Below, one piece after another: positions 4,992-24,722 of a stretch of 27,733 nucleotides of DNA. Within the stretch, counting starts at the first letter, position 1. Each line of letters opens with the position of its first letter. The stretch lies in UHGV virus genome UHGV-0042152; one strand, 5' to 3'. Below the pieces are notes generated by a model, which saw nothing but the letters and a program-made list of their open reading frames with translations, ran no database searches and was not told the origin of the DNA. Source of the stretch: a virus. Made by a program: the position numbers and the translations under genes.

Positions 4992-5195
4992 ATGAACAAC
5001 AAGACATGGTTTCGTGCATATGCATGGGCGCTGGTATGCGTCCTCGTCTCTCTCATTCTGTATGTAGGGGTACTCCCCCGAATGATTTCATCAGACAGCT
5101 CCTTCCTGGTATTGCTGGGCATTTTCATTGCCATGCTGTACCCGGCAGGCGTTGTTCGCCTTTTCAGTAAGTACATCAAGGAAATCAAACAATGA
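4992..5195 (+). CDS. Small inner-membrane protein (67 aa, two predicted TM helices), partner of SPFH protein
   Basis: Hydrophobic segments WALVCVLVSLILYVGVL and FLVLLGIFIAMLYPAGVV. Stop overlaps the start of the downstream SPFH gene (ATGA at 5192). Confidence 0.5.
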   Translation: MNNKTWFRAYAWALVCVLVSLILYVGVLPRMISSDSSFLVLLGIFIAMLYPAGVVRLFSKYIKEIKQ

Positions 5196-6022
5196 AGAAA
5201 TTCAGACTCTTTCAGATTCTCCCGCTTTTTGCCGCCATCCTGCTGGTTGGCTGCGATCGCGTTGAGCCAGGTAATGTGGGCATCAAAGTCAACAAGCTGG
5301 GCGACGACAAAGGCGTTGGCGAAGTGGTTGGCGTTGGCCGCTACTGGACTGGCTGGAATACCGAGGTTTACATCTTCCCGACCTTCAAACAAATGAAGAC
5401 CTACGATGACCCGTTCAGCTTCCAGATGAGTGACGGCACAACCATCGGCTATCACATCGGCGTGGCCTACAAGGTCGATCCATCCAAAGTTACCACAGTG
5501 TTTCAGACCTACCGCAAAGGCGTGGACGACATTACCGACACTGACCTGCGCCAGAAGATCGCCGACGCACTCAACCGACTGGCCAGCAAAATGACCACAG
5601 ATAAATTCATCGACGGTGGCAAGTCTGAACTGCTGGATTCAGCACTTAAAGATATTCAGGCAGAAATGACACCCATCGGCATTCAGGTAATGAGCCTCTC
5701 TTATGTCGGTAAACCGGAATACCCACCAACCGTGATCGACAGCATTAATGCCAAAGTCACAGCGAACCAGAAAACCCTGCAACGCGAACAGGAAGTAAAA
5801 CAGCGCGAAGCAGAAGCCAACATGTTGCGCGCAGAAGCTGCCGGACAGGCTGATGCCATTCGTACAAAAGCCCAGGCTGAAGCCGACGCCATTCGTTTAC
5901 GCGGTGAAGCTCTGCGCCAGAATCCCGGCGTTATGGAGCTGGAAGCGATTAACAAATGGAACGGCACGCTACCGCAATACATGACCAGTAACACCGCTGT
6001 TCCGTTTGTTCCGGTGAAGTAA
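5192..6022 (+). CDS. SPFH/band-7 (HflK/C-prohibitin-like) domain lipoprotein
   Basis: N-terminal lipoprotein signal with lipobox LLVGC. Central SPFH-like region followed by an Ala/Glu/Arg/Gln-rich coiled-coil tail (QREQEVKQREAEANMLRAEAAGQADAIRTKAQAEADAIRLRGEALRQ) typical of band-7 proteins. Confidence 0.7.
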   Translation: MKKFRLFQILPLFAAILLVGCDRVEPGNVGIKVNKLGDDKGVGEVVGVGRYWTGWNTEVYIFPTFKQMKTYDDPFSFQMSDGTTIGYHIGVAYKVDPSKVTTVFQTYRKGVDDITDTDLRQKIADALNRLASKMTTDKFIDGGKSELLDSALKDIQAEMTPIGIQVMSLSYVGKPEYPPTVIDSINAKVTANQKTLQREQEVKQREAEANMLRAEAAGQADAIRTKAQAEADAIRLRGEALRQNPGVMELEAINKWNGTLPQYMTSNTAVPFVPVK

Positions 6023-6053: not shown

Positions 6054-6188
6054 AGCAGTATCAGGATTTTTTAGTATGCCGTTCTCACAAAAAAACCGCT
6101 TGCCATGCCGCAATCAGTCAGGTTACATTTCCGCTGCACCTCATAAAACGGGTGCCGGGATTGGAACCCCGCAGACTAACAGAGCGCA

Positions 6189-6211
6189 CAACCGCGCCAG
6201 CGGTTTTTTTG
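6189..6211 (+). terminator. Candidate rho-independent terminator
   Basis: ACCGC-GCCA-GCGGT hairpin followed by TTTTTTT at 6204-6210. Confidence 0.45.
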
Positions 6212-6389
6212 TGCGTGCCGTATCGCCACGTCTTTTTCGCGTCAGAATTATGGTGGGGCGTACAGGGCCAGCATCAGCTGGGCCGGGTCCTCTGTTAGCC
6301 GGTAGTTCCAACCCTGTACGTCTCACCACCCCGAGCTTGGAACCTCTGGATGGTGAGTTTTCAAAACTAACTAACAGAGAGGCCACATC

Positions 6390-6620
6390 ATGGCAAACCG
6401 CAAACAGCACCGCGCTATCGCGGAGCGTCGTCACATCCAGACTGAAATCAACCGCAGACTTTTCCGCGCATCACGCGTCGCGCAAATCATGCACATCAAT
6501 ATGCTGCATGAGCGCAGCCACGCACTATCAAACATTTATTCCGCCTCTGTTTTCAGCTATCTGGCGGATGATCTGCGCGAGCTTCAGCAGCTCATCCAGC
6601 AGCAAAACAAACTCCATTAA
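6390..6620 (+). CDS. Hypothetical basic protein (76 aa)
   Basis: ORF with AGAGAGG RBS. Arg/His-rich N-terminus. No family recognised. Confidence 0.45.
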   Translation: MANRKQHRAIAERRHIQTEINRRLFRASRVAQIMHINMLHERSHALSNIYSASVFSYLADDLRELQQLIQQQNKLH

Positions 6621-6692
6621 TTCCTGTTCCAGGCCTTTCCTGCACCTTGCGGCGGGAGGCCTTCGCACATCTGTAGCAAGAGGATTGCCGCA

Positions 6693-7058
6693 ATGATTCT
6701 CGCCAACGACTTTCTTGAATACCTGCTCAACACAGAACGTGATCTTGCCGCTCGCGTGCGTGATCGTTATGACATGTACCTGAAATCCCTGCCTGTACCG
6801 CAGCTCGCTGACGGAAAGATTGTTATTGATGGTCGCTACATGATTGACAGCCATGAGGAAAATTACAGGCTTTACCGCATTGAAGGTGGCACCCCGTCCG
6901 TTATTGGCATTTACCAGCGCCCATCCTCTGCAATCGTCGATGTGATTGCCGACAGCATCCGCATCACACATCGCCATGCCGACACAGAAGACACCGTGCT
7001 GGAAATTCAGCGGCTGGCTACAGTCTGCCGCGACACCCTGAATGGCATGACGAAGTAA
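6693..7058 (+). CDS. Hypothetical protein (121 aa) immediately upstream of gpA
   Basis: ORF with AGAGGA RBS, in the position of the small P2 ORFs that precede gene A. Confidence 0.5.
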   Translation: MILANDFLEYLLNTERDLAARVRDRYDMYLKSLPVPQLADGKIVIDGRYMIDSHEENYRLYRIEGGTPSVIGIYQRPSSAIVDVIADSIRITHRHADTEDTVLEIQRLATVCRDTLNGMTK

Positions 7059-7064
7059 ATCACT

Positions 7065-9887
7065 ATGACGGCAGAGTACATCAGGGACTGGCAACAACCG
7101 CGCCACGCAGTGGGTCGTGAAGGAACGGGAATCCCCGCTCCTGAATCCGAGCTTTCCTCCTGGCTGGATGCCTACCGGGCAGAGAACGAGCGCCGCCAGG
7201 AAATGGCTGATGCGGCGTTCTCCGCCACGCCGCTGGGCAACCTGATTAATAAAAGCCTGGACGCACAGGAAAAACAGGACAAAACCATCACACTGGCCAG
7301 AGAAGCCAGAAAACAGGCACGTGGCGCGGTGGATGAAGCCATGGCCTCGCTGCGCCTGCTGCCGTCCTATCTGCGCGATCCGCTTATTCGCCACCTCTCC
7401 TTCCTGCGCAAAAAACAGGAAGCCGATCGCCGGAAAGGCAAAAAGAGCTGGCAGGCGGAACGCTATGCACGCGGAACCCTGCGCAAAATATTCGAACGTC
7501 TGGATCGCACTGACGGACACTGGCTGACACCGGGTTATCGCTCCCTTGCCGGACGCGAACGCCTGGACGATTTGCTTTACCTGCCGCAGCTCAACAAACA
7601 CCAGATACAGACGCTGGCCACCATGACGGCGGCGATGTTCAGCAGCACCTTCGAAAAACTCTGTGATGGCTTTGGTGCCAGAGATGGCGAGCTGACCATG
7701 GATGTAACGCTGAAGGCGTATCAGATGCTGGCCCGCATGGCGTTACACCTGCACATCATGCCTCCACATTATGACGCACTGACAACAGATAAAGACCGGA
7801 GGAACGAACCGGACACGGAGCTGCTGCCGGGCGCAGTCCTTCGCCTGACCTGTGCGGAATGGTGGAAACGCAAACTGTGGCTGTTACGTTGCGAGTGGAG
7901 AGAAGAACAACTCCGCGCCGCCTGTCTGGTTTCCAGAAAAACATCACCCTATCTGAGCCAGGACGCGTTAAGCGAGTTTCGCGCACAGCGCGAGAAAACA
8001 CGCGATTTCCTGAAAAGTTTCATGCTGGAAAACGAAGACGGGTTCACGATTGATCTCGAGACAGTGTATTACGCGGGAGTAAGTAACCCGGTTCACCGTA
8101 AGGCAGAAATGATGGCCACCATGAAGGGGCTGGAACTTCTGGCCGAAGCCCGTGGCGACAAAGCGGTGTTTCTGACTGTCACCTGCCCGTCAAAATACCA
8201 CGCCACAACAGAGAACGGTCATCCGAATCCCAAATGGAACGGGGCCACCATGCGCGACTCCAGCGATTACCTGGTTAACACGTTTTTTGCGGCGGTCCGC
8301 AAAAAACTGAACCGCGACGGTCTTCGCTGGTATGGCATCCGCACGGTGGAGCCTCACCATGACGGCACCGTGCACTGGCATATGATGGTCTTTGCTCATC
8401 CGGAAGAAATCGACAGCATCGTGGCCATCACCCGCGATATTGCCATTCAGGAAGACCGCCACGAGCTGGGCAATGATATTACTCCGCGCTTTAAGGCGGA
8501 GTATGTCGACGGCTCAAAAGGCACACCAACCAGCTATATCGCGACCTACATCGGAAAGAACCTGGACAGCCGCGCCGTGGATGGCATCGACCCGAAAACG
8601 GGCAAGCCACGCGTTGACCACGAAACCGGAAAATCAATGGCCGAGAGTGTGGAGCGCGCCATCGGCTGGGCGCGCCTTCATCGGGTCCGCCAGTTCCAGT
8701 TCTTTGGCATCCCCCCCCGTCAGGTGTGGCGTGAACTGCGCCGCCTTGCCAGCCAGATGGCACGCAACCCGGAAGGCCCGCAACGACTGAAAGATGACGC
8801 AATGGATGCGGTACTCGCTGCCGCCGATGCCGGGTGTTTTGCCACCTACATTGAAAAACAGGGCGGCGTACTTGTTCCACGCAAAGACTACCTGATTCGC
8901 ACCGCCTACGACCTCGCAGATGAGCTGAATGATTACGGCGAACAGAGCGTACAGATTTACGGGATCTGGTCACCACTCATCGGGGAATCCTCCCGTGTGT
9001 GCACGCATCCGGATAACTGGAAACTGGTAAGACGTAAACCGGAAACGGAAGACAGCGCCCGCGAAAATGGTTTTGACCTTCAGGGCGGCCCTGCCGCCCC
9101 TTGGACTCGTGGCAATAACTGTCCCCGTGTACAGGAAACGGACAACAACGGGACAGAACAGCCGGAAGAACGGCCAGCACCGTGGCCGCAGCTTCCTGAC
9201 GGCGTTGACGTGAACGAATGGATGCGCTCACTGAAACGGCACGAACGCCGGGCGCTGATGCGTTCGCTGCGTGACAAACAGGCAAAAAACAGCAGTGATG
9301 AAATGCAGAGCTGGACACAGAGCCGCAAACAGCAGCGGCCTTTGCCTGATAACCACGAATTACTCGCTAAAGAATGGCGGGAATCTGCCGAATCTCTCGG
9401 CCTGCATATCGGTGAACAGCAGATGCAGCACCTGTTACGGGGCGGCAGCCTGTACGTTGACGGCAGCATCATTGCACCGCAGGGATTTGAAATTGTACGC
9501 AAACCGGATACCCGCCCGGACAGCCGAATCACGCAGCTCTGGCAGCGCCTGAGCCGTAATCACGGCGTAAGCAGCACGGAGATCCGCCATAACCCGGTCG
9601 CCAGCTATCTGGAACAGCTGGGGGCATCAGACCCCGAAGCCGCCGCACGTCTGGCATCCACACTTCAGCAGGACCAGAACACCATGACCCCCCCCGTTAC
9701 CGTGCTTTCTGACATGCTGCGCGCCATCCGCGACGCAGAGCACGCACAGAGAATCAGTGAAACCACTGAACGTGCCCGCCGCAAAGCAGACCTGCTGCGG
9801 GGTGGCCTGACCAGTGGAAACAAAAAACAGACAGAAACGGGATTCACAAATCCCGTAAATGAGCAAAAAACGCGCCGCGATATATGA
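7065..9887 (+). CDS. A: Replication initiation protein gpA (rolling-circle HUH endonuclease)
   Basis: Central region matches P2 gpA (VFLTVTCPSKYH..., VEPHHDGTVHWHMMVF HUH motif, YIATYIGKNLD catalytic-Tyr region). 940 aa versus 761 aa in P2, so the ends are diverged or extended. Confidence 0.9.
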   Translation: MTAEYIRDWQQPRHAVGREGTGIPAPESELSSWLDAYRAENERRQEMADAAFSATPLGNLINKSLDAQEKQDKTITLAREARKQARGAVDEAMASLRLLPSYLRDPLIRHLSFLRKKQEADRRKGKKSWQAERYARGTLRKIFERLDRTDGHWLTPGYRSLAGRERLDDLLYLPQLNKHQIQTLATMTAAMFSSTFEKLCDGFGARDGELTMDVTLKAYQMLARMALHLHIMPPHYDALTTDKDRRNEPDTELLPGAVLRLTCAEWWKRKLWLLRCEWREEQLRAACLVSRKTSPYLSQDALSEFRAQREKTRDFLKSFMLENEDGFTIDLETVYYAGVSNPVHRKAEMMATMKGLELLAEARGDKAVFLTVTCPSKYHATTENGHPNPKWNGATMRDSSDYLVNTFFAAVRKKLNRDGLRWYGIRTVEPHHDGTVHWHMMVFAHPEEIDSIVAITRDIAIQEDRHELGNDITPRFKAEYVDGSKGTPTSYIATYIGKNLDSRAVDGIDPKTGKPRVDHETGKSMAESVERAIGWARLHRVRQFQFFGIPPRQVWRELRRLASQMARNPEGPQRLKDDAMDAVLAAADAGCFATYIEKQGGVLVPRKDYLIRTAYDLADELNDYGEQSVQIYGIWSPLIGESSRVCTHPDNWKLVRRKPETEDSARENGFDLQGGPAAPWTRGNNCPRVQETDNNGTEQPEERPAPWPQLPDGVDVNEWMRSLKRHERRALMRSLRDKQAKNSSDEMQSWTQSRKQQRPLPDNHELLAKEWRESAESLGLHIGEQQMQHLLRGGSLYVDGSIIAPQGFEIVRKPDTRPDSRITQLWQRLSRNHGVSSTEIRHNPVASYLEQLGASDPEAAARLASTLQQDQNTMTPPVTVLSDMLRAIRDAEHAQRISETTERARRKADLLRGGLTSGNKKQTETGFTNPVNEQKTRRDI

Positions 9888-9933
9888 AGCGCACACAAAA
9901 CAGGCAAAAACGGGATTTCAGAATCCCGTAAAC
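9821..9933. repeat. Two ~40-bp imperfect direct repeats, each with an ACGGGATT-N4-AATCCCGT palindrome
   Basis: Copy 1 at 9821-9860 lies inside the last codons of gpA; copy 2 at 9893-9933 lies in the gpA-parM intergenic region. Palindrome cores at 9837-9856 and 9910-9929. Confidence 0.55.
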
Positions 9934-9963
9934 GATTAATTAATCAACATAAGGAAAAGCGAC

Positions 9964-10923
9964 ATGAAAATTTGTATCGACGACGGCTCCACCAACATCA
10001 AGCTGGCATGGACTGAGAATGGCGAACGCCGCAACGCCATCAGCCCGAACAGCTTCAAGTCGGAATGGTCTGCGCCGTTCGGTGGCATGCAGCCCGCGAA
10101 CTACATGCTTGATGGCGTGCGCTATGGTTTTGATCCGGTTAGCGATCGCTTTGTCCAGACGACCGACACGCAATACCAGTACAGCGATGTGAATGTAATC
10201 GCCATTCATCACGCGCTGGTCAAATCAGGCATCACGCCACAGGAGGTGGATGTGGTTGTCACCCTGCCACTGAGCGAGTATTTCGACACAAACGCACAGC
10301 CGGACATGGCCAACATCAACCGCAAAAAAGCGAACGTTATGCGCCCGGTGGAGTACCAGAACGGCGAAGCATTCACTATCCGTAACGTGCGGGTTATGCC
10401 TGAATCCATTCCGGCTGGCTTTAAGGCACTGGCTGACATGAGTCCGTTTGAATCCCTGCTGATTGTGGATTTAGGCGGAACCACGCTGGATGTGGCAAAG
10501 GTTCAGGGACAACTGGCAGGTATCAGCCAGGTGCTTTGCGATCCACACGTAGGCGTTTCCCTGATGGCCGATGCCGTACTGTCGGTGATGGCCACTAACG
10601 GTATGCGTACCAGTCACCACATCGCCAATACCATTATCGAACATCGCCATGATGAAGCCTGGCTGCGCCAGCACATCCACAATGACGCGCATTACGCCAG
10701 CCTGATGGCGGTTATTCGTGAAAAGGAAGAAACACTGAAACAACGCGTGATCCGCGCGCTGGCGGGTTTTTCGGGTTACGGGCGGGTGATGGTTGTCGGT
10801 GGCGGGGCAGAGATTGTGGCACCCGCTATCCGCGAAGCCTGCGGAGTTAATGCGACTTTCATCGCGGACGGGGTGCCACAGTTTGCTCTGGTTAATGGGC
10901 TGTACGCAATGGACAAGGAGTAA
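9964..10923 (+). CDS. parM: ParM/StbA-family actin-like segregation ATPase
   Basis: Strong similarity along the whole protein to plasmid R1 ParM as recalled (IDDGSTNIKL, ISPNSFK-EW, QYSDVNV-A-HHAL, VMPESIPAG, DLGGTTLD, GVSL, GGGAE, LVNG-Y). AAGGAAAAG RBS. Confidence 0.85.
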   Translation: MKICIDDGSTNIKLAWTENGERRNAISPNSFKSEWSAPFGGMQPANYMLDGVRYGFDPVSDRFVQTTDTQYQYSDVNVIAIHHALVKSGITPQEVDVVVTLPLSEYFDTNAQPDMANINRKKANVMRPVEYQNGEAFTIRNVRVMPESIPAGFKALADMSPFESLLIVDLGGTTLDVAKVQGQLAGISQVLCDPHVGVSLMADAVLSVMATNGMRTSHHIANTIIEHRHDEAWLRQHIHNDAHYASLMAVIREKEETLKQRVIRALAGFSGYGRVMVVGGGAEIVAPAIREACGVNATFIADGVPQFALVNGLYAMDKE

Positions 10924-10927
10924 ACCA

Positions 10928-11239
10928 ATGACGACACCAACCAGACGGATAAGTTTCTATCTGAAGCCCGCCGCCGTCAAGAACGAAGGCGAAGCATGCG
11001 CCTGGCTGGACAGCCTTACACCAGAAGCCCGCAAAAGTGGTCAACGCGTGGCTTTTCTGGCCGGGCTGGCACTACTGAAAATGAATCCGGCAGAGGCTTA
11101 CCGACTGGCTGCATGGGCTGATGATGAGGCGTTATCAATGACACAAACCAGGACAGAACGCCCCGCGTCACAGCCAGTATCAGCCGCACAGATAACCAGT
11201 CAGATGGCCGGAAATATCCGGGCGTTATTTCCCGAATAA
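10928..11239 (+). CDS. parR: ParR-like adaptor/centromere-binding protein (putative)
   Basis: Directly downstream of parM with an AAGGAG RBS. N-terminal region (RRISFYLKP...RVAFLAGLALLKMNP) resembles the R1 ParR N-terminus as recalled. Size is appropriate. Confidence 0.55.
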   Translation: MTTPTRRISFYLKPAAVKNEGEACAWLDSLTPEARKSGQRVAFLAGLALLKMNPAEAYRLAAWADDEALSMTQTRTERPASQPVSAAQITSQMAGNIRALFPE

Positions 11240-11244
11240 CACAA

Positions 11245-11268
11245 CATCAGGGCGCATCCGCCCTGATG
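11245..11268 (+). other. Perfect 10-bp-arm palindrome (CATCAGGGCG-CATC-CGCCCTGATG) just after the parR stop
   Basis: Read directly in the sequence. No U-tract follows, so more likely a protein-binding or RNA-processing site than an intrinsic terminator. Confidence 0.4.
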
Positions 11269-11302
11269 ACTTTAACCCGGGAGCATAAACAAGGGGGACA
11301 CA

Positions 11303-11635
11303 ATGCAACACATTGACAGAGAAAAAGCGCAGCGACTGATTGAGCGGATGGAAGCGCTGGCGAAAGAAGAAAATGTCAACATCCAAAAAATAGCTGAATG
11401 TGGCCAGATAGTTCTTCGTCGTGAAAAAGACCTCAAACAACTGATGTCTGGCGAAACCAGCAAAACATGGACTTCAGGCGAGAAGACGGTTTATTGCAGC
11501 TTCTGCAATAAATCCCAGTACGAAGTCACAAAGGTGATTGCCGGACCGTCTGTTTACATCTGCAATGAGTGCGTGGATTTGTGCAATGAAATTATCAGGA
11601 AAGAAGTGACAGACAAAAAGGAAAAAAACGCATGA
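11303..11635 (+). CDS. Stand-alone ClpX-type C4 zinc-binding domain protein (110 aa)
   Basis: C-terminal half [38 protein letters not shown] is near-identical in pattern to the N-terminal zinc-binding domain of ClpX (C-x2-C...C-x2-C). No AAA+ module follows. The N-terminal ~55 aa are coiled-coil-like. AGGGGGA RBS. Confidence 0.7.
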
Positions 11636-11946
11636 ACAGAAAACAGAAACAAGAGTTGAAATACTTCTTACGTAAAGAAATTGCCAGGCTTGAAGATGCA
11701 GAGTCACAATCATCAGAAATTCCGTTCGGAATGGATATCAACGACGCCCGTATGCTCCAGGCATACCGCATAGCTCAGGCTGCACTACAGGCAAAACCGT
11801 CAGATGGACTGGTTAGAGCGGTGCGTTTCTATGAACAGGTAAAGCGTGAGAATCCGCCAGTCGAAACCGGAGCATGGAAAGACGCTGTTGACTGGGTGCT
11901 CAAAGAGGCTTACCAGGCTGTAAACATTGGTACCAAAGGAGATTGA
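11632..11946 (+). CDS. Hypothetical protein (104 aa)
   Basis: Translationally coupled to the upstream gene (ATGA overlap at 11632). No motif recognised. Confidence 0.5.
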
Positions 11947-11947
11947 T

Positions 11948-12388
11948 ATGACCACTTTTACCGACAAAGAACTGATTAAAGAAATCAAAGAGCGCATAGG
12001 CAGCCTGGACGTCCGAGACAATATTGAGCGTCGGGCTTATGAAATTGCTCTGGCATCGCTGGAAGCAGAGGCAGTTATGTTCTGTATATCAGGACAAAAT
12101 GTAGATTCAGAAGAACATGTATCAACCAGCAAAGCGGTTGTTGATGCCTGGGTTGAAGAATGGAATCAGGTTGACGGAAGTCCTGGCGAACCACTGTACA
12201 AAACTATGCCACTCTACTATCACGCTGCCTTGCCAGCGCCGGTAGTGCCGGAAGAAGCAACTCCGGAAAACGTAGAAATGCTCTCTGGCTATGTTTCCAC
12301 GTACAAATTAACCGATAGCGAGCGCGATATTGCTGCCGAAATATGGAACGCCTGCCGCGCCGCTATGCTTCATGGGAAAGGAGAGTGA
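11948..12388 (+). CDS. Hypothetical protein (146 aa)
   Basis: ATG at 11948 with an AAAGGAG RBS. Previous stop is 2 nt upstream. No motif recognised. Confidence 0.5.
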   Translation: MTTFTDKELIKEIKERIGSLDVRDNIERRAYEIALASLEAEAVMFCISGQNVDSEEHVSTSKAVVDAWVEEWNQVDGSPGEPLYKTMPLYYHAALPAPVVPEEATPENVEMLSGYVSTYKLTDSERDIAAEIWNACRAAMLHGKGE

Positions 12389-13104: not shown

Positions 13105-13236
13105 NNNNNNNNNNNNNNNNNNNNNNNNNNNNNNNNNNNNNNNNNNNNNNNNNNNNNNNNNNNNNNNNNNNNNNNNNNNNNNNNNNNNNNNNNNNNNNNN
13201 NNNNNNNNNNNNNNNNNNNNNNNNNNNNNNNNNNNN
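13105..13236. other. Run of N (masked or unsequenced, 132 nt)
   Basis: Literal n characters in the sequence. Confidence 1.
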
Positions 13237-13880: not shown

Positions 13881-13968
13881 NNNNNNNNNNNNNNNNNNNN
13901 NNNNNNNNNNNNNNNNNNNNNNNNNNNNNNNNNNNNNNNNNNNNNNNNNNNNNNNNNNNNNNNNNNNN
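13881..13968. other. Run of N (88 nt) at the expected position of the cos site
   Basis: Literal n characters. In P2 the cohesive-end site lies immediately beyond the 3' end of portal gene Q, which here ends at 13974. Confidence 1.
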
Positions 13969-16771: not shown

Positions 16772-16925
16772 TGCTCCCCCTGAGTAATTACAGGAAGATT
16801 ACCCGCGCGCGAAACCGTTCTCCTTAACCCCCTGCTCTGACTGTTTTCTTACAACAAAAGCCCTTTGTATCTGCCTGTTACGCTTTGCCATCATGACTGA
16901 AGAACCAGTCAGAGGGGCAAAAACT
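16772..16925. promoter_or_regulatory. Divergent late promoter region (P-Q leftward, O-N-M-L rightward)
   Basis: Intergenic region between divergent P and O, where P2 has its Ogr-dependent PP and PO promoters. A canonical TGT-N12-ACA element could not be confirmed by eye. Confidence 0.4.
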
Positions 16926-17785: not shown

Positions 17786-18838
17786 ATGAATCTGGTGATG
17801 TCAGATAATGCCCGTAACAAGCTGGGCCGCTACATGACGCGACAGGCATCGATTAACAATATCCCGGTTTCTGGACTGGTATCGCGATTTACCGTGGAAC
17901 CCTCGGTGCAGCAGCGTTTTGAAAACGCCTCAAAGGAAAGTACCGAATTTACGAAAAGAATTAACGTGATCGGCGTGACCGACCAGAAAGGCGAAAAAAT
18001 CCTCCTGGACACCACCGGGCCAATTGCGCGCACGAATAGCAGTTATGACGGCATCAAACGCCGTAACCCGAATAACGTGATCGATATGAAGTCTCGTCAG
18101 TACCAGTGCGAACAGGTGAACTACGATACCTTTATTTCGTACCCACAGCTTGATACCTGGGCGGCCCACAGCGATTTTCAGTCCCGTATCAGTACACAGA
18201 TCGCCCGGCAGGTAGCGCTTGATCGCATCATGATTGGCTTTAACGGCACATCCCACGCCTACGAGTCTGATTTTCACACCAACAAGCTGCTTCAGGACGT
18301 TAACGTGGGCTGGCTGGAGCACATCAGAACCGATGCCAGCGAGCGCGTAATGAATGACGTGACGCTGACCTCCCGCAACATGGACAACACTGTGGCGCAC
18401 GTGGGTAAGTATGCGAATGCCGATGCTCTGGTACAGGATGCGCGCTCATCCCTGCTGGATGAATGGCACAAGGAAGCTGACGACCTCGCGGTGATTATGG
18501 GGCGCAACCTGTTTAACTCGCTGCGTCTGCCCGTGCTGAACAGCATCAGCGGCCAGAATCCCAATGCGGAATTACTTGCCGGGCAGCTCATCCTGTCATC
18601 GCGCACCATTGGCGGGCTGGGCGTGTTCCTTGCGCCGTTCTTCCCGGATGCAACGATGCTTATCACCTCGTTCAACAACCTGTCGATTTACTGGCAGAAA
18701 GGTTCAATGCGTCGCCTGATGAAAGACGAGCCGGAATACAACCGCATCGCCACCTACCAGTCCATCAATGACGCTTATGTCGTTGAAGACTATGGCAAGT
18801 GCGCGATGATCACTGGCCTGAAGTTCGCCGACAGCTAA
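17786..18838 (+). CDS. N: Major capsid protein gpN
   Basis: 350 aa (P2 N is 357 aa). Follows O with an AAAGGAG RBS, in the P2 O-N-M-L position. Confidence 0.85.
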   Translation: MNLVMSDNARNKLGRYMTRQASINNIPVSGLVSRFTVEPSVQQRFENASKESTEFTKRINVIGVTDQKGEKILLDTTGPIARTNSSYDGIKRRNPNNVIDMKSRQYQCEQVNYDTFISYPQLDTWAAHSDFQSRISTQIARQVALDRIMIGFNGTSHAYESDFHTNKLLQDVNVGWLEHIRTDASERVMNDVTLTSRNMDNTVAHVGKYANADALVQDARSSLLDEWHKEADDLAVIMGRNLFNSLRLPVLNSISGQNPNAELLAGQLILSSRTIGGLGVFLAPFFPDATMLITSFNNLSIYWQKGSMRRLMKDEPEYNRIATYQSINDAYVVEDYGKCAMITGLKFADS

Positions 18839-20482: not shown

Positions 20483-20806
20483 GTGAGCACCATTCAAACA
20501 GGGATCACAGAGCAGGTTATTGCGTGGCTCTTTGACCACCTGCCAACGGTGTATGCAGTAGGCGCGGCGGTCAGCATTTCCGCGCTGATGAGTCTTTATG
20601 ACGGACGAACACTGGTTCAGACCGTAACGGGATCGCTGGCGTGCGGCGTTCTTGCCATGGCCGTGGCCGGGTCGCTGCGCTTCTTCGGGATCCCTGAGGA
20701 TGCAGTGACGTTTTTTGGTGCCTCAATCGGTTTTATGGGCGCAGAGAAAGCACGCGACAAGGTTATTGCAATATTTGATCGCAGGGTGAAGGAGAGGAAC
20801 GAATGA
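20483..20806 (+). CDS. Holin (putative, GTG start)
   Basis: Position of P2 Y. Hydrophobic segments (VIAWLFDHL, VYAVGAAVSISALM, LACGVLAMAVAG) with a charged C-terminus. GGGGGA RBS before the GTG at 20483. Confidence 0.55.
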   Translation: MSTIQTGITEQVIAWLFDHLPTVYAVGAAVSISALMSLYDGRTLVQTVTGSLACGVLAMAVAGSLRFFGIPEDAVTFFGASIGFMGAEKARDKVIAIFDRRVKERNE

Positions 20807-21195
20807 GCAACACATTTAAATTCAGCAGCCGGAGCGAAAAGAATTTGCAGGGTGTAAATCCTGATCTGGTGAAAGTGACCCGACGGGCGCTGGAAATCTC
20901 GGAAGTGGATTTTGGTATCACCGAAGGATTGCGCAGTCGTTATCGTCAGAAGCAGCTCGTGACCACAGGCAAGAGCCAGACCATGAACAGTCGCCATCTC
21001 ACAGGGCATGCCGTGGATGTTGTGGCTTATGTCGGCAACCAGGTGTCATGGGAATGGCCGCTGTACGAAAAAATCGCAGCAGCATTCAGACAGGCCAGCC
21101 AGGAACTGAATATTCCGGTGGAATGGGGCGGCGACTGGAAGACCCTGAAAGACGGACCGCATTTTCAGTTACCACACGGAGCCTATCCGGCATGA
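20803..21195 (+). CDS. Endolysin, peptidase M15 (VanY/L-alanyl-D-glutamate peptidase-like)
   Basis: SRHLTGHAVDV and downstream D/H residues fit the zinc-binding pattern of M15 peptidases. Follows the holin with an AAGGAGAGG RBS. This is not the P2 K lysozyme type. Confidence 0.7.
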   Translation: MSNTFKFSSRSEKNLQGVNPDLVKVTRRALEISEVDFGITEGLRSRYRQKQLVTTGKSQTMNSRHLTGHAVDVVAYVGNQVSWEWPLYEKIAAAFRQASQELNIPVEWGGDWKTLKDGPHFQLPHGAYPA

Positions 21196-21587
21196 AGCTC
21201 TGGCCCACGCTTGGCGTCGCTTTCCTTCTGATTACATCCATGCGTCTGTCGTGGTCGCTGGGCCGGGAGAACGCCAGAAACGAAGCGCAGGCCAGCACCC
21301 TGAAAAGTACCGTCGACACACTGAATATCATCAGCGCCGGGGTACAGGATATGCAGCAGGTGCTGGCTCAGCTCCGCGCGGAAAATCAGCAACGCAATCA
21401 GGACGGAGAGGTAAGACGTGAACAGCTACGCAACGATATTGCAAAAGATGAATGCGCCCACGCTTTGCCTGACGCTCGTTTTACTGACAGGTTGCGCAGG
21501 CACGCAGAACGCGCCAGGGCCAGCGCCGTCAGTCCGGCTTATACCGCAGACGCTGACCATGCCGGTAACGCCTCCCCCCTTCCCTGA
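21192..21587 (+). CDS. Inner-membrane spanin (Rz/LysB-like)
   Basis: N-terminal TM helix (LWPTLGVAFLLITSM) then coiled-coil periplasmic region. ATGA overlap with the endolysin stop. Confidence 0.6.
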   Translation: MKLWPTLGVAFLLITSMRLSWSLGRENARNEAQASTLKSTVDTLNIISAGVQDMQQVLAQLRAENQQRNQDGEVRREQLRNDIAKDECAHALPDARFTDRLRRHAERARASAVSPAYTADADHAGNASPLP

Positions 21588-21729
21588 CCCACCCACATGG
21601 GGAAACCTCGGAATATGGGGCGACCGCCTTCTGGATGCACTGGAAACCTGTAACGCGGATAAACGGGCCATTGCTGAACTGGATAAGAGAATAGCCGAAC
21701 TGACACACCAGACGGGAGTAACACAATGA
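21448..21729 (+). CDS. Outer-membrane spanin lipoprotein (Rz1/LysC-like), overlapping i-spanin in another frame
   Basis: Lipoprotein signal with lipobox LLTGC (MNAPTLCLTLVLLTGCAG). Pro-rich. Starts inside the i-spanin gene and extends beyond it. Confidence 0.6.
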   Translation: MNAPTLCLTLVLLTGCAGTQNAPGPAPSVRLIPQTLTMPVTPPPFPDPPTWGNLGIWGDRLLDALETCNADKRAIAELDKRIAELTHQTGVTQ

Positions 21730-23603
21730 CCAGTAAGAACTTTGCACTGATTACAGCCATGACACAGGCTGAACTGACTCAAAAGGTGAATGAACATCTT
21801 GCGAAAGGGTGGCATCTTCAGGGGGAGACGCGGGTTGCCTACGAACCCGGCACCCCGTGGTATCTAATGCAGGCAATGGTGGCCGATGGCACTACAGACA
21901 TCTCACCTGATTCCCCCCAGCACGGCAGCGTGCCGGAGTGGTATTACGTGGTGGTACTTGCTGGTCAATCCAATGCCATGTCATATGGTGATGGAATGCC
22001 GCTGCCGGATTCTTACGATGCGCCCCACCCACGCATTAAGCAACTGGCCCGTCGCAACACAGTGACTCCCGGTGGTAAAGCATGCGCATTTAACGACATC
22101 ATTCCGGCAGACCACTGCCTGCATGATGTTCAGGATATGAGCGCACTGAATCATCCGAAGGCAGACCTGAGCAAAGGGCAGTACGGCTGTGTCGGCCAGG
22201 GCTTACATATTGCCAAAAAACTGCTTCCGTATATCCCGAATAACGCGGGGATCCTGCTGGTACCATGCTGTCGTGGTGGTTCGGCATTCACCCAGGGCGC
22301 GGAGGGGACATTCAGTGCGGACACGGGGGCCAGCCAGGATTCGGCACGCTGGGGTGTGGGTAAACCGTTATATCAGGACCTGATCGCACGCACCAAAGCG
22401 GCATTACAGAAGAACCCGAAAAATGTGTTGCTGGCGGTGTGCTGGATGCAGGGCGAATTTGACATGAGCGCTGCCACCTACGCACAGCAACCGGACCTGT
22501 TCACGGCCATGCTGAAGCAGTTCCGTACTGACCTTTCCGGATTTAACGCGCAGTGCCATGGCGGCAGTGCTGCAGTTGTACCGTGGATTTGTGGCGACAC
22601 GACGTATTACTGGAAAAACACATACGGCACACAGTATGACTCCGTCTACGGCGCGTACAAAAACAGGGAGAGCGACAACGTTTTCTTTGTGCCGTTCATG
22701 ACCGACGGTAACGGCAACAACACGCCCACCAACTTACCGGCAGAAGACCCGGATATTGCTGATGCAGGTTATTACGGCGCGCAATCCCGTAGTAATGGCA
22801 ATTGGGTATCATCAAACCGCCCGACACATTTCAGTTCATGGGCGCGCAGGAGCATTATTCCGGATCGTATGGCAACCGCTATTCTGAACGCAGCCGGGCG
22901 CACCTCAGCCTTCATCAGTGGTAAGGCACCGGAAATCAAACCCTCGCCCGGCGGCGACACGCCATCGGGGCCGTCTGAAGATGCATCCGTACGCACAATC
23001 TCCCTGCTGCCGACAGCCGGAGAGGCTGCTGCGCAGGGCTGGACCATCACCGGCGGCAGTGTTGCGCTGGAAGATGGTGTGTTTAAGGTTACCAAGCAGA
23101 GCAATAAAACCTGGTCCCTGATGCATCCGGTGGATGACGCAGTCTCCCTGCTGACACGGGGTGGCAGACTGAGCTGTAAGTTTCGACTGTCAGGCGCACT
23201 GACCAACAACCAGTTCGGTCTGGGAATTTATCTGTATACCGATGTAGCGTTACCTGACGTCGTGGCGATGACCGGGACTGGTAACCCGTTCCTGATGTCG
23301 TTCTTCACCCAGACCACAGGCGGCAAACTGAATCTGATGCATCACAAGAAAGCCGGAAACACAAAGTTGGGCGAGTTCGGGAATTACAGTAACGACTGGC
23401 AGACGCTGGAGCTGGTGTTCACCGCCGGCAGTGCCACGGTTACTCCGAAACTGAATGGAGTGGCTGGCCCGGCATTCCAGGTCATAAAAGACAGTCTGAC
23501 ACTGGGGCTGAATGCGCTGACGTTAACTGATATCACTAAAAATGCCGCGTACGGCGTCGATATCGGCAGCCTGGTGCTGGAAATCAATAATCCCGCAGCA
23601 TAA
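21726..23603 (+). CDS. SASA-type (sialate O-acetylesterase-like, SGNH) carbohydrate esterase with N-terminal DUF1737-like domain, NanS-p-like
   Basis: 625 aa. GQSN catalytic-serine motif (VVVLAGQSNAMSYGDG) characteristic of SASA esterases. N-terminal about 50 aa resemble the DUF1737 found on prophage NanS-p esterases. C-terminal about 200 aa may be a carbohydrate-binding module. Inserted between the spanins and gpR. Confidence 0.7.
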   Translation: MTSKNFALITAMTQAELTQKVNEHLAKGWHLQGETRVAYEPGTPWYLMQAMVADGTTDISPDSPQHGSVPEWYYVVVLAGQSNAMSYGDGMPLPDSYDAPHPRIKQLARRNTVTPGGKACAFNDIIPADHCLHDVQDMSALNHPKADLSKGQYGCVGQGLHIAKKLLPYIPNNAGILLVPCCRGGSAFTQGAEGTFSADTGASQDSARWGVGKPLYQDLIARTKAALQKNPKNVLLAVCWMQGEFDMSAATYAQQPDLFTAMLKQFRTDLSGFNAQCHGGSAAVVPWICGDTTYYWKNTYGTQYDSVYGAYKNRESDNVFFVPFMTDGNGNNTPTNLPAEDPDIADAGYYGAQSRSNGNWVSSNRPTHFSSWARRSIIPDRMATAILNAAGRTSAFISGKAPEIKPSPGGDTPSGPSEDASVRTISLLPTAGEAAAQGWTITGGSVALEDGVFKVTKQSNKTWSLMHPVDDAVSLLTRGGRLSCKFRLSGALTNNQFGLGIYLYTDVALPDVVAMTGTGNPFLMSFFTQTTGGKLNLMHHKKAGNTKLGEFGNYSNDWQTLELVFTAGSATVTPKLNGVAGPAFQVIKDSLTLGLNALTLTDITKNAAYGVDIGSLVLEINNPAA

Positions 23604-23626
23604 GGAAGAGCAGGAGAGCAAAACAG

Positions 23627-24094
23627 ATGCTTAAGACAAACAGTCTGCGAGAGTCCATGCTTCATGGGTGTCGGTGGTGCCAGGCTAATCCCGAGAAATT
23701 CACCATTTTCGTGGAGAGCGGCAACATTGAAACGACCGGGGAAGCGCCCTCGTTTGTTTACCGCTATCAGATGGTGATGTTTGTCATGGATTACGCCGGA
23801 GAGCTGGACGACCTCACGCTGCCGCTGCTGGCGTGGTTATCCGAAAATCAGCCACAGTTGTTGCTCAACCCTGAGCGTAATCAGGACATCAAATTCTCCG
23901 CCGTTATCAATGACGATGACAGCGCCGATCTCCTGTTTACGCTCCCCCTGCGGGAACGCGTTCGCGTCACGCGCAGCAGTCAGGGCACACCGCAGGCAGA
24001 ACACCTGCCGGAGCCAAAACCCCGCCTGCCATCTTCCGAAGGCGACTGGTCGCATATATTCCAGGATGTGACGTGGGGTGAAAGCGATGGATAA
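23627..24094 (+). CDS. R: Tail completion protein gpR
   Basis: 155 aa, same length as P2 R. Motifs MLK-DSLR...NP...IFV-NG...L-PVLAWL-ENQP shared with P2 R as recalled. CAGGAGAG RBS. Confidence 0.8.
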   Translation: MLKTNSLRESMLHGCRWCQANPEKFTIFVESGNIETTGEAPSFVYRYQMVMFVMDYAGELDDLTLPLLAWLSENQPQLLLNPERNQDIKFSAVINDDDSADLLFTLPLRERVRVTRSSQGTPQAEHLPEPKPRLPSSEGDWSHIFQDVTWGESDG

Positions 24095-24722
24095 GGCATT
24101 CACCCGCGTGGATGAAACCTTTGAGGCCATCCGCGACAGCCTGAATCAGCAGGCCATCAATAACATCGCCAGAAAGCTGGCACAGGATTTACGTCGCGCC
24201 CAGCAGGCACGTATCCGGTCACAGAAAGCGCCGGACGGGACCGCATGGACACCACGCAGACGCCGCGTAACCCGGATACAGGAGCGCATTCGCTTTATCT
24301 GGAATAACGAAGCACGCACGCTGAAAAACTGGCATCACGACACGGGGAAATACGGGCGAACCATTACCGGGTGGGATGAGGATAAAAACAGCATCCGCAC
24401 GTTTTACCGGGATGACATCGACCGTTTTCTGGAAATACGCACCCGGCGCATCAACCAGGACAGCACAAAGCGCGTCCCCATGTTCGTAAAACTGCGCACC
24501 GCCCGCTACCTGAAAGCCCGTGCAGATGCCTCCGGTGTGACGGTGGGTTACAGCGGCGTGGCCGCACGTATTGCACGCGTTCATCAGTTCGGTGAGCGCG
24601 ATCAGGTTGCGCCGGGCATTTTCACCGATTACCCGGTACGTGAGCTGCTGGGTATCAGCCAGGCAGATGAGCGCCTGATTTATAACACGGTGCTGGGCCG
24701 GATTGCGGAGGCTGTACGGTGA
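24087..24722 (+). CDS. S: Tail completion/virion morphogenesis protein gpS (putative)
   Basis: Position between R and V. ATG at 24087 overlaps the R stop. Longer than P2 S. Confidence 0.65.
   Translation: MDKAFTRVDETFEAIRDSLNQQAINNIARKLAQDLRRAQQARIRSQKAPDGTAWTPRRRRVTRIQERIRFIWNNEARTLKNWHHDTGKYGRTITGWDEDKNSIRTFYRDDIDRFLEIRTRRINQDSTKRVPMFVKLRTARYLKARADASGVTVGYSGVAARIARVHQFGERDQVAPGIFTDYPVRELLGISQADERLIYNTVLGRIAEAVR

Follow-up and report, generated by a model that had tools for sequence, protein, structure and literature searches.

A NanS-p-type sialate O-acetylesterase gene in the late operon of a P88-like prophage of Escherichia coli

The esterase gene and its active site

The DNA analysed here, UHGV virus genome UHGV-0042152, is a stretch of 27,733 nucleotides (the window) that turns out to be Escherichia coli chromosome: apart from two masked N runs it matches strain MS 198-1 at 99.99-100% identity, and a 5.6-kb stretch of it is 100% identical to that strain. 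It holds a P88-like prophage (Xuanwuvirus, Peduoviridae) situated between dmsA and serS. The subject of this paper is a single gene of this prophage, an open reading frame (ORF) at 21726..23603 on the + strand, which opens with ATG, encodes 625 amino acids (aa) and lies between the lysis genes and tail gene R. An earlier note made from the letters of the window had called an ORF of this length at exactly these coordinates. The Prokaryotic Genome Annotation Pipeline (PGAP) labels the product 'DUF6645 domain-containing protein' (WP_000202136.1), an uninformative RefSeq name that follows from NCBIfam having no model for the protein. The gene and its parts are as follows:

21726..23603, + strand: NanS-p-type sialate O-acetylesterase gene (ORF; Pfam, PHROG and PDB matches; PGAP annotation)
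21735..21884, + strand: N-terminal DUF1737 domain, aa 4-53, the P2-lineage-specific variant called type A below (Pfam, 30.5 bits; cutoff 24)
21885..21941, + strand: Pro/Ser-rich linker 1, aa 54-72, containing the recombination boundary at about 21932
21930..22889, + strand: SASA/SGNH esterase core, NanS-homologous, aa 69-388 (3PT5, E=1e-121)
23013..23591, + strand: C-terminal lectin-like jelly-roll domain, aa 430-622 (6YP6; Pfam DUF6645; beta-sandwich in the AlphaFold2 model)

All three Pfam domains score above their gathering scores, with SASA at aa 75-271 (49.2 bits) and DUF6645 at aa 476-586 (70.3 bits) following the DUF1737 match, and the order DUF1737, SASA, DUF6645 is the complete NanS-p architecture. 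The protein matches phrog_143, a family that carries no function label, from end to end with 1080 bits. Among proteins of known structure, the core corresponds to E. coli NanS (YjhS; 3PT5) and the C-terminal part to the C-terminal domain of NanS-p (6YP6, E=2.7e-30). The earlier note had read the protein as NanS-p-like, with a SASA core carrying a GQSN motif and a DUF1737-like N-terminus, and the profile alignments and structural matches agree with it in each of these respects. Given the sequence matches to 3PT5 and 6YP6, fold searches with the AlphaFold2 model were deemed needless. The mean predicted local distance difference test score (pLDDT) of this model is 62, and its catalytic core is poor because the alignment is shallow; aa 423-620 form a confident beta-sandwich (pLDDT 85-92). 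At moderate confidence (pLDDT about 81 over aa 11-30, falling to 64-68 over aa 31-50), the N-terminus is predicted as strand-helix-strand-strand, with strands at aa 5-11, 29-38 and 46-53 and the helix at aa 14-26. The interdomain linkers are rich in Pro and Ser (DISPDSP and KPSPGGDTPSGPS), and a scan of the whole protein, both linkers included, found no 'SSP' motif. No signal-peptide-like start was seen by eye, no predictor having been run.

The catalytic blocks of the core can be aligned one by one with those of NanS, which in 3PT5 are GQSNA at 17-21, RGGSAF at 120-125, MQGEFD at 178-183 and His301 (PMC10792757). Block I of the esterase is GQSNA at aa 80-84, including the GQSN motif at aa 80-83, with Ser82 (codon 21969-21971) as the nucleophile and Gln81 as the oxyanion residue; block II is RGGSAF at aa 183-188, aligned with 120-125 of 3PT5; block III is MQGEFD at aa 241-246, with QGE at 242-244, aligned with 178-183; and block V is R-P-T-His368-F-S (His368 codon 22827-22829), aligned with R-S-S-H301-F-S of NanS. 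In an alignment of 25 sequences of the family, residues G80, Q81, S82, N83 and H368 and the blocks are invariant. The earlier note had proposed to locate a Ser-His-Asp triad; Ser82 and His368 are present, and the block V Asp is absent, as it is in NanS, which leaves a Ser-His dyad. NanS itself, which is specific for 9-O-acetyl N-acetylneuraminic acid (Neu5Ac), lacks this Asp and uses Ser/His together with a Gln/QGE 'inverted' oxyanion hole (PMC9487903), so the triad is an unsuitable yardstick for NanS-type enzymes. Measured against NanS, the active site of the esterase (Ser82, Gln81, QGE 242-244, His368) is intact. The lambdoid NanS-p proteins are esterases active on 5-N-acetyl-9-O-acetylneuraminic acid (Neu5,9Ac2) and on mucin, are co-induced with the late genes and enable lysogens to grow on O-acetylated sialic acid (reviewed in PMC8065619). 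The enzyme itself is unsurprising, being a member of a known family, NanS-p, in a new phage context.

The late-operon setting

The gene order around the esterase is gpO, gpN (the P2-family capsid gene), gpM, gpL, X, holin, M15 endolysin, LysB, LysC, esterase, gpR, gpS, V, W, J. The genes and the segment that matter for the argument are these:

17786..18838, + strand: P2-family major capsid protein, gpN homologue (PGAP 'phage major capsid protein, P2 family')
20483-20806, + strand: holin (Pfam, PHROG, PGAP)
20803-21195, + strand: M15 endolysin (Pfam, PHROG, PGAP)
21192-21587, + strand: LysB/Rz-like protein (Pfam, PHROG, PGAP)
21541..21729, + strand: lysC, an Rz1-like o-spanin gene whose stop overlaps the esterase start in ATGA (Pfam LysC, PGAP)
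21674..23668, + strand: segment standing in place of 93 bp of lysC/R overlap in P88 (P88 junction by blastn, residue comparison)
23627-24094, + strand: tail completion gene R (Pfam P2_Phage_GpR, 133 bits)
24087-24722, + strand: tail completion gene S (Pfam Phage_tail_S, 98 bits)

In P88 itself, lysC overlaps R by 17 nt. Homology with P88 (blastn) stops here at 21673, inside lysC, and restarts at 23669, inside R; and in ten named P88-like phages the flanks are matched at about 96% identity in two pieces and the esterase gene is absent; these matches lie far beyond what chance would give. Relative to P88, the last 18 or so codons of lysC and the first 14 or so of R are divergent. The segment runs from a variant lysC tail through the esterase gene and a 23-nt spacer, in which a Shine-Dalgarno sequence lies, to a variant 5' end of R. 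The earlier note had described a gene of a P2-type late operon inserted where lysC meets R. The position and the P2-type late-operon setting both hold; what does not hold is a clean insert, since the end of lysC and the start of R differ as well and the gene is a recombinant mosaic.

The G+C content of the esterase gene is 55-57%, the same as that of its neighbours. Around it we counted three promoter-like sites, where shuffled sequences gave 5.2+/-2.2, and ten terminator-like sites, where they gave 9.9+/-3.4; none of either kind stood above chance. With no transcription signals of its own above chance, production together with the late and lysis genes is the natural reading. For the same reason, together with the overlap with the lysC stop and the neighbour-like G+C content, we rejected the view of the gene as a 'moron', that is, as autonomous cargo; by its sequence context, it reads as an integral gene of the late operon.

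Mosaic structure, N-terminal types and carriers

By megablast, similarity to the nanS-p genes of Shiga toxin (Stx) phages begins at nucleotide 207 of the esterase gene and continues to its 3' end, at about 88% identity to the alleles of Stx1a phages. Sliding identity against one lambdoid allele from IMG/VR (L024) gives a sharper picture: 21726-21935 is non-homologous, 21996-22795 is 97-100% identical and 22996-23495 is 99-100% identical. DNA homology to lambdoid nanS-p alleles thus starts at about 21932, within linker 1. Other type-A alleles combine an identical N-terminus and lysC with differing downstream patchworks (72-100% identity), and the catalytic and lectin-like parts have been exchanged by recombination with lambdoid prophage alleles. 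Hybrid loci point the same way. In L017, the P2 genes gpN (6061-7110), gpL and LysC (9693-10001) lead into a type-A esterase gene from 10001, downstream of which lie a lambdoid holin (12035), terminase (16148) and portal (18262); in L068 and L074, a lambdoid type-B esterase gene is followed directly by P2 gpR (esterase 10001-11848 and gpR 11875-12339 in L068). These two arrangements have the look of reciprocal recombination products, formed between esterase paralogs that belong to two different prophages. The hybrid loci and the patchwork alleles together indicate that esterase paralogs are active recombination substrates between unrelated prophages; they form recombination bridges of relevance to prophage mosaicism.

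The part of the gene that stands outside this exchange is the N-terminus. When aa 1-72 were searched by tblastn against 50,697 phage records, only three matches were obtained, all of them P88-like, and a phmmer search with aa 1-66 against 1.84e9 representatives gave 11 matches. The standalone DUF1737 proteins nearest to it (P0136-P0138) were looked for in IMG/VR and not found, and a search of the N-terminal 72 aa against a word-indexed protein database returned only fragments of the same protein and was uninformative. Across the esterase family, at least five N-terminal types can be told apart:

type A: this gene, in the P88-like P2-type prophage
type A': shares 50-55% identity with type A; occupies the same lysC-R slot in a second P2 lineage, whose endolysin is a lysozyme and whose gpN has 364 aa
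types B and C: share 26-29% identity with type A; occur in lambdoid prophages
phi24B type: shares 22% identity with type A; occurs with phi24B-type virion genes
type D: a non-DUF1737 domain of about 110 aa with no Pfam match; Mu-like prophages, between gin and com/mom

Types A and A' have the motif GGAGTAACAC(A/G)ATGA before the ATG in common. The N-terminal type was compared with the virion module in 218 unique arrangements pooled from IMG/VR and assemblies. Types A and A' were in a P2 context in all 35 of their arrangements, and a P2-family capsid gene accompanies them in every locus that has it in range. The phi24B type occurred with phi24B portal or capsid genes in 7/7 confidently typed arrangements with those genes in range, type C with a gene for a fusion of ClpP and major capsid protein (ClpP-MCP) in 5/5, and type D beside Mu-like tail genes (13 arrangements). 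The association of N-terminal type with phage type is strong. Between the P2-type variants, dN/dS of the N-terminus is 0.07-0.19, ratios that are approximate because synonymous sites are near saturation; by these values, the P2-type DUF1737 variant is under purifying selection.

Some neighbours travel with the esterase. A DUF1378 gene (54-60 aa) lies directly 3' of it in a lambdoid locus (L010, 12084-12266) and in phi24B (L014, 5387-5566, unnamed there), and accompanies it into the second P2 lineage and Mu-like prophages (L004, 12036-12200; L008, 12046-12213; L012, 12184-12366); it is absent from the window, where the 23-nt spacer leads directly to R. In the Mu-like loci L012 and L013 (esterase 10001-12049), the esterase and lectin-like cassette comes after a gin-type invertase and before com/mom.

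Type-A N-terminal DNA is present in 376 of 5,426 complete E. coli genomes (about 7%) at 383 places, with an identity of 99% or more in 367 of them; in the sampled rows with lysC annotated, it always abuts lysC. The esterase ORF is intact in about 370 complete E. coli genomes. The P88-like lysis cassette was found at 1,173 places in about 1,050 of the genomes, so about one third of P88-like prophages in complete E. coli carry the esterase. A scan of species-representative genomes gave three loci, all in Escherichia. Strain EC958 of the pandemic sequence type 131 (ST131) has the same 625-aa gene in the same lysC-R slot; to judge by its place relative to lrp (EC958_1001), this copy is almost certainly EC958_1029, the orthologue. 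PMC5425062 describes EC958_1029 as a paralog, at 82.7% identity, of EC958_1546, which enhances motility; the ST131 copy of the esterase has already been cloned there as a NanS-like paralog. Our literature search found no paper that ties NanS-p, DUF1737 or acetylesterases to P2-like phages or Peduoviridae; a genome-wide association study (PMC10088187) was set aside, as it concerns a different nan cluster.

The records have peculiarities of their own. Many database copies of the esterase end at contig ends (proteins P0001-P0010), and the 'phage' record ON470623.1 stops inside the gene; several esterase paralogs per genome, breaking short-read assemblies, are the likely cause of such broken copies. 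The phage records vB_EcoM-705R2 and vB_EcoM-569R5 were considered as possible induced virions; 705R2, the one inspected, proved to be an incomplete genome, flanked by bacterial DNA and broken off within the esterase gene, and so gives no evidence that virions are made. In one protein of 752 aa (P0016, from a 6.6-Mb NCBI contig), a type-A esterase is joined, near its C-terminus, to a tail-collar (PF07484) fibre segment; a deletion in a degraded prophage may have brought the esterase and a tail-fibre gene together. Esterase-bearing P88-like prophages are also present on plasmid-labelled records, for example NZ_MK439959.1 at 227,878 bp. The early region of the prophage in the window contains a gene for a ParM-type segregation ATPase (9964-10923) and a small partition/stability gene (10928-11239); these two genes and the plasmid-labelled records are hints of a plasmid-like lifestyle or of plasmid-borne copies. 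In the same region, a gene for an SPFH/band-7 domain protein (5192-6022) lies among small hypothetical genes. The low G+C content at 13-14 kb was discarded as an artefact of the masked N runs (13105-13236 and 13881-13968).

A possible capsid tether, rival readings and known systems

What the enzyme might do in a P2-type phage can be approached through its homologue gp84 of phi24B, which a recent preprint describes, from cryo-electron microscopy and proteomics, as an abundant virion protein (10.64898/2026.04.10.717836). There, the DUF1737 domains form hexamers that plug into the central hexon of the T=9 facets by means of a Tyr42 'tooth', and the catalytic and lectin-like domains are apparently clipped after release at linkers containing SSP (10.64898/2026.04.10.717836). 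The region that diverges most between the N-terminal types is the loop equivalent to this anchor. In type A, EPGTPWY (aa 39-45, including Trp44 and Tyr45) is predicted to form the loop between beta2 and beta3, and EPG(T/V)PWYLMQ is invariant at this place in all P2-type variants. The earlier note had offered two options, a released nutrient-scavenging enzyme and a virion-associated, receptor-modifying one. Released and virion-associated enzymes remain the two live options; for virion association, phi24B now offers a direct precedent, which is capsid decoration through DUF1737 rather than receptor modification at the tail.

We propose, at about even odds, that the esterase is a functional member of the NanS-p family and an integral late-operon gene of P88-like (P2-type) prophages, whose product is probably tethered to the capsid and released by lysis. 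On this proposal, the gene would be transcribed only after induction, with the head-completion, lysis and tail genes, and since no signal-peptide-like N-terminus was recognised, the protein would stay in the cytoplasm until the holin, endolysin and spanins free it. The DUF1737 domain would tether part of the esterase to gpN hexons of the P2-type capsid, as in phi24B gp84, with the gpN homologue as the probable docking partner; the virion would thereby bear a mucin-binding, de-O-acetylating enzyme. Support for a place on the capsid hexons is indirect and comes from the exclusive association with P2-family capsid genes (35 of 35 arrangements). The remaining or capsid-clipped esterase would act as a soluble enzyme on the O-acetylated sialic acids in mucus of the gut or urinary tract, yielding Neu5Ac for the lysogens that survive. 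More tentatively, and with some doubt, we suggest that DUF1737 may serve as a swappable adaptor specific to the type of virion, so that a common, recombining esterase-lectin cassette would be joined in each lineage (P2-type, lambda-type, 933W/phi24B-type and also Mu-type, where the N-terminal domain is another one) to an N-terminal anchor matched to its capsid.

Several points weigh against these proposals. The phi24B result is so far a preprint, and in it gp84 is confined to flat hexons, those in the middle of T=9 facets (10.64898/2026.04.10.717836). The Tyr42 anchor of phi24B is not conserved in the esterase, nor do the linkers here contain SSP motifs. The capsid of P2-type phages is T=7 and hence has no flat facet-centre hexons. 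Type B occurs with two capsid families (lambda gpE-type in 6 arrangements, ClpP-MCP in 8), so the mapping between N-terminus and capsid is not one-to-one. The upstream flank of the esterase is not homologous to lambdoid phages, and gene-conversion tracts therefore cannot overwrite the N-terminus, functional or not; the link between N-terminal type and phage type could come from linkage and ancestry alone. As for regulation, the strict P2 Ogr box (TGT-N12-ACA) is absent from the O-operon promoter at 16772-16925, the promoter region from which the terminase and gpO genes diverge, and its three matches in the whole window, a number below chance expectation, all lie elsewhere; late regulation of the esterase is consequently argued from gene position only. 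Finally, overexpression of EC958_1029 had no effect on motility (PMC5425062).

The main rival holds that the esterase is a soluble public-good enzyme only, which never enters the virion, is freed by lysing lysogens and feeds their kin from O-acetylated sialic acids, while DUF1737 has another role, such as oligomerisation or solubility, and the N-terminal type mirrors ancestry and linkage. We regard this as a serious possibility, though one short of an even chance. It matches the established function of lambdoid NanS-p, namely growth on Neu5,9Ac2 and de-O-acetylation of mucin (PMC8065619), and it sits well with a late-operon gene whose product shows no signal-peptide-like start by eye. The unconserved Tyr42, the lack of flat 3-fold hexons in a T=7 capsid and the two capsid families of type B, which argue against a strict capsid fit, count in its favour too. 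It accounts less well for an N-terminus that is exclusive to P2-type phages and under strong purifying selection while the rest of the gene is freely exchanged, or for the Mu-like prophages, which swap the N-terminus for an unrelated domain, the pattern expected of a virion-type-specific adaptor; moreover, structural work has proven the capsid location of the phi24B homologue (10.64898/2026.04.10.717836).

Two further scenarios are less likely than either the capsid tether or the soluble-only enzyme. The esterase might act on the bacterial surface, removing O-acetyl groups from glycans of the host cell (for instance O-acetylated K1 polysialic acid, O-antigen or other capsules) and so aiding the adsorption of progeny or preventing their trapping on the debris of lysed cells, much as enzymes that modify or destroy receptors do. 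Such a possibility has been raised for NanS-p and O-acetylated lipopolysaccharide (PMC8065619), the gene adjoins tail genes, and the esterase is common in extraintestinal pathogenic lineages such as ST131 as well as in Shiga toxin-producing E. coli. We nevertheless judge it improbable, considering that the protein has no tail-associated domain, that the sole characterised homologue of its anchor domain binds the capsid and not the tail, that the same catalytic module is common to phages with unrelated receptors, and that the core is very close to NanS (3PT5), which is specific for 9-O-acetyl Neu5Ac (PMC9487903). Lastly, the gene could be a passive passenger, a recombination scar maintained by gene conversion from lambdoid paralogs and of no use to the P2-type phage. 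The homogenisation of the catalytic part with lambdoid alleles, the hybrid junctions of L017, L068 and L074 and the two thirds of P88-like prophages that do without the esterase would fit; but an ORF intact in about 370 genomes, with an N-terminus at least 99% identical in 367, a dN/dS of 0.07-0.19 across two P2 lineages in a part of the gene beyond repair from lambdoid copies, and a 5' junction motif and gene slot kept in the second P2 lineage despite a different endolysin make this scenario very hard to credit.

NanS-p enzymes have been discussed almost solely as cargo of Stx and lambdoid prophages, whereas here one is fixed in the late operon of a P2-type prophage that is very common. About 7% of complete E. 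coli genomes are carriers, pandemic ST131 among them, and current annotation gives the protein no other name than 'DUF6645 domain-containing protein'. Beyond the earlier note, the analysis adds the mosaic structure of the gene, a P2-restricted N-terminal variant under purifying selection, and the capsid precedent of phi24B. A promiscuous catalytic cassette combined with a lineage-locked N-terminus turns the phi24B result into a prediction for P2-type phages. If DUF1737 is indeed an adaptor, the P2-type capsid of P88-like phages would carry an active enzyme that modifies mucin, the first such decoration protein there; we know of no decoration protein described so far for the P2-type phage family. 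The presence of the esterase on P88-like virions would also bear on the question of whether capsid display of enzymes is a general strategy of gut temperate phages.

Among known systems, the closest is EC958_1029 of ST131, which has the same prophage, the same serS-side integration site, the same lysC-R slot and the same length of 625 aa; its P2-type context and distinct N-terminus go unmentioned in the passages of PMC5425062 consulted. The NanS-p proteins of lambdoid and Stx phages (933W L0105/z1466; phi24B vb_24B_21, which is gp84) have the same DUF1737-SASA-DUF6645 architecture and are likewise encoded in the late operon beside the lysis cassette. Their genes lie between Q/stx and holin S of lambdoid phages, whereas the esterase gene lies 3' of the spanin genes and 5' of tail genes R and S in a P2-type phage (Peduoviridae, Xuanwuvirus), the lambdoid position being customary for the family and no condition of the biochemistry; its DUF1737 is only 22-29% identical to the lambdoid and phi24B variants, and the DUF1378 gene found downstream in lambdoid loci (L010, phi24B) has no counterpart downstream of it. 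With phi24B gp84 in particular, the esterase has in common the family, the predicted helix and three strands of the N-terminus and the Pro/Ser-rich linkers. It differs in the capsid at hand, a P2-family major capsid protein instead of the T=9 podovirus capsid, in the anchor loop, EPGTPWY instead of AGY42GAEF, and in having no SSP motifs. Chromosomal NanS (YjhS, the 9-O-acetyl-N-acetylneuraminate esterase of 3PT5) can be aligned with the core from end to end, with the same blocks and with the block V Asp missing in both; NanS is a single-domain enzyme of the nan regulon, whereas the prophage esterase has DUF1737 in front of the core and a lectin-like domain behind it, and is probably under phage late control.

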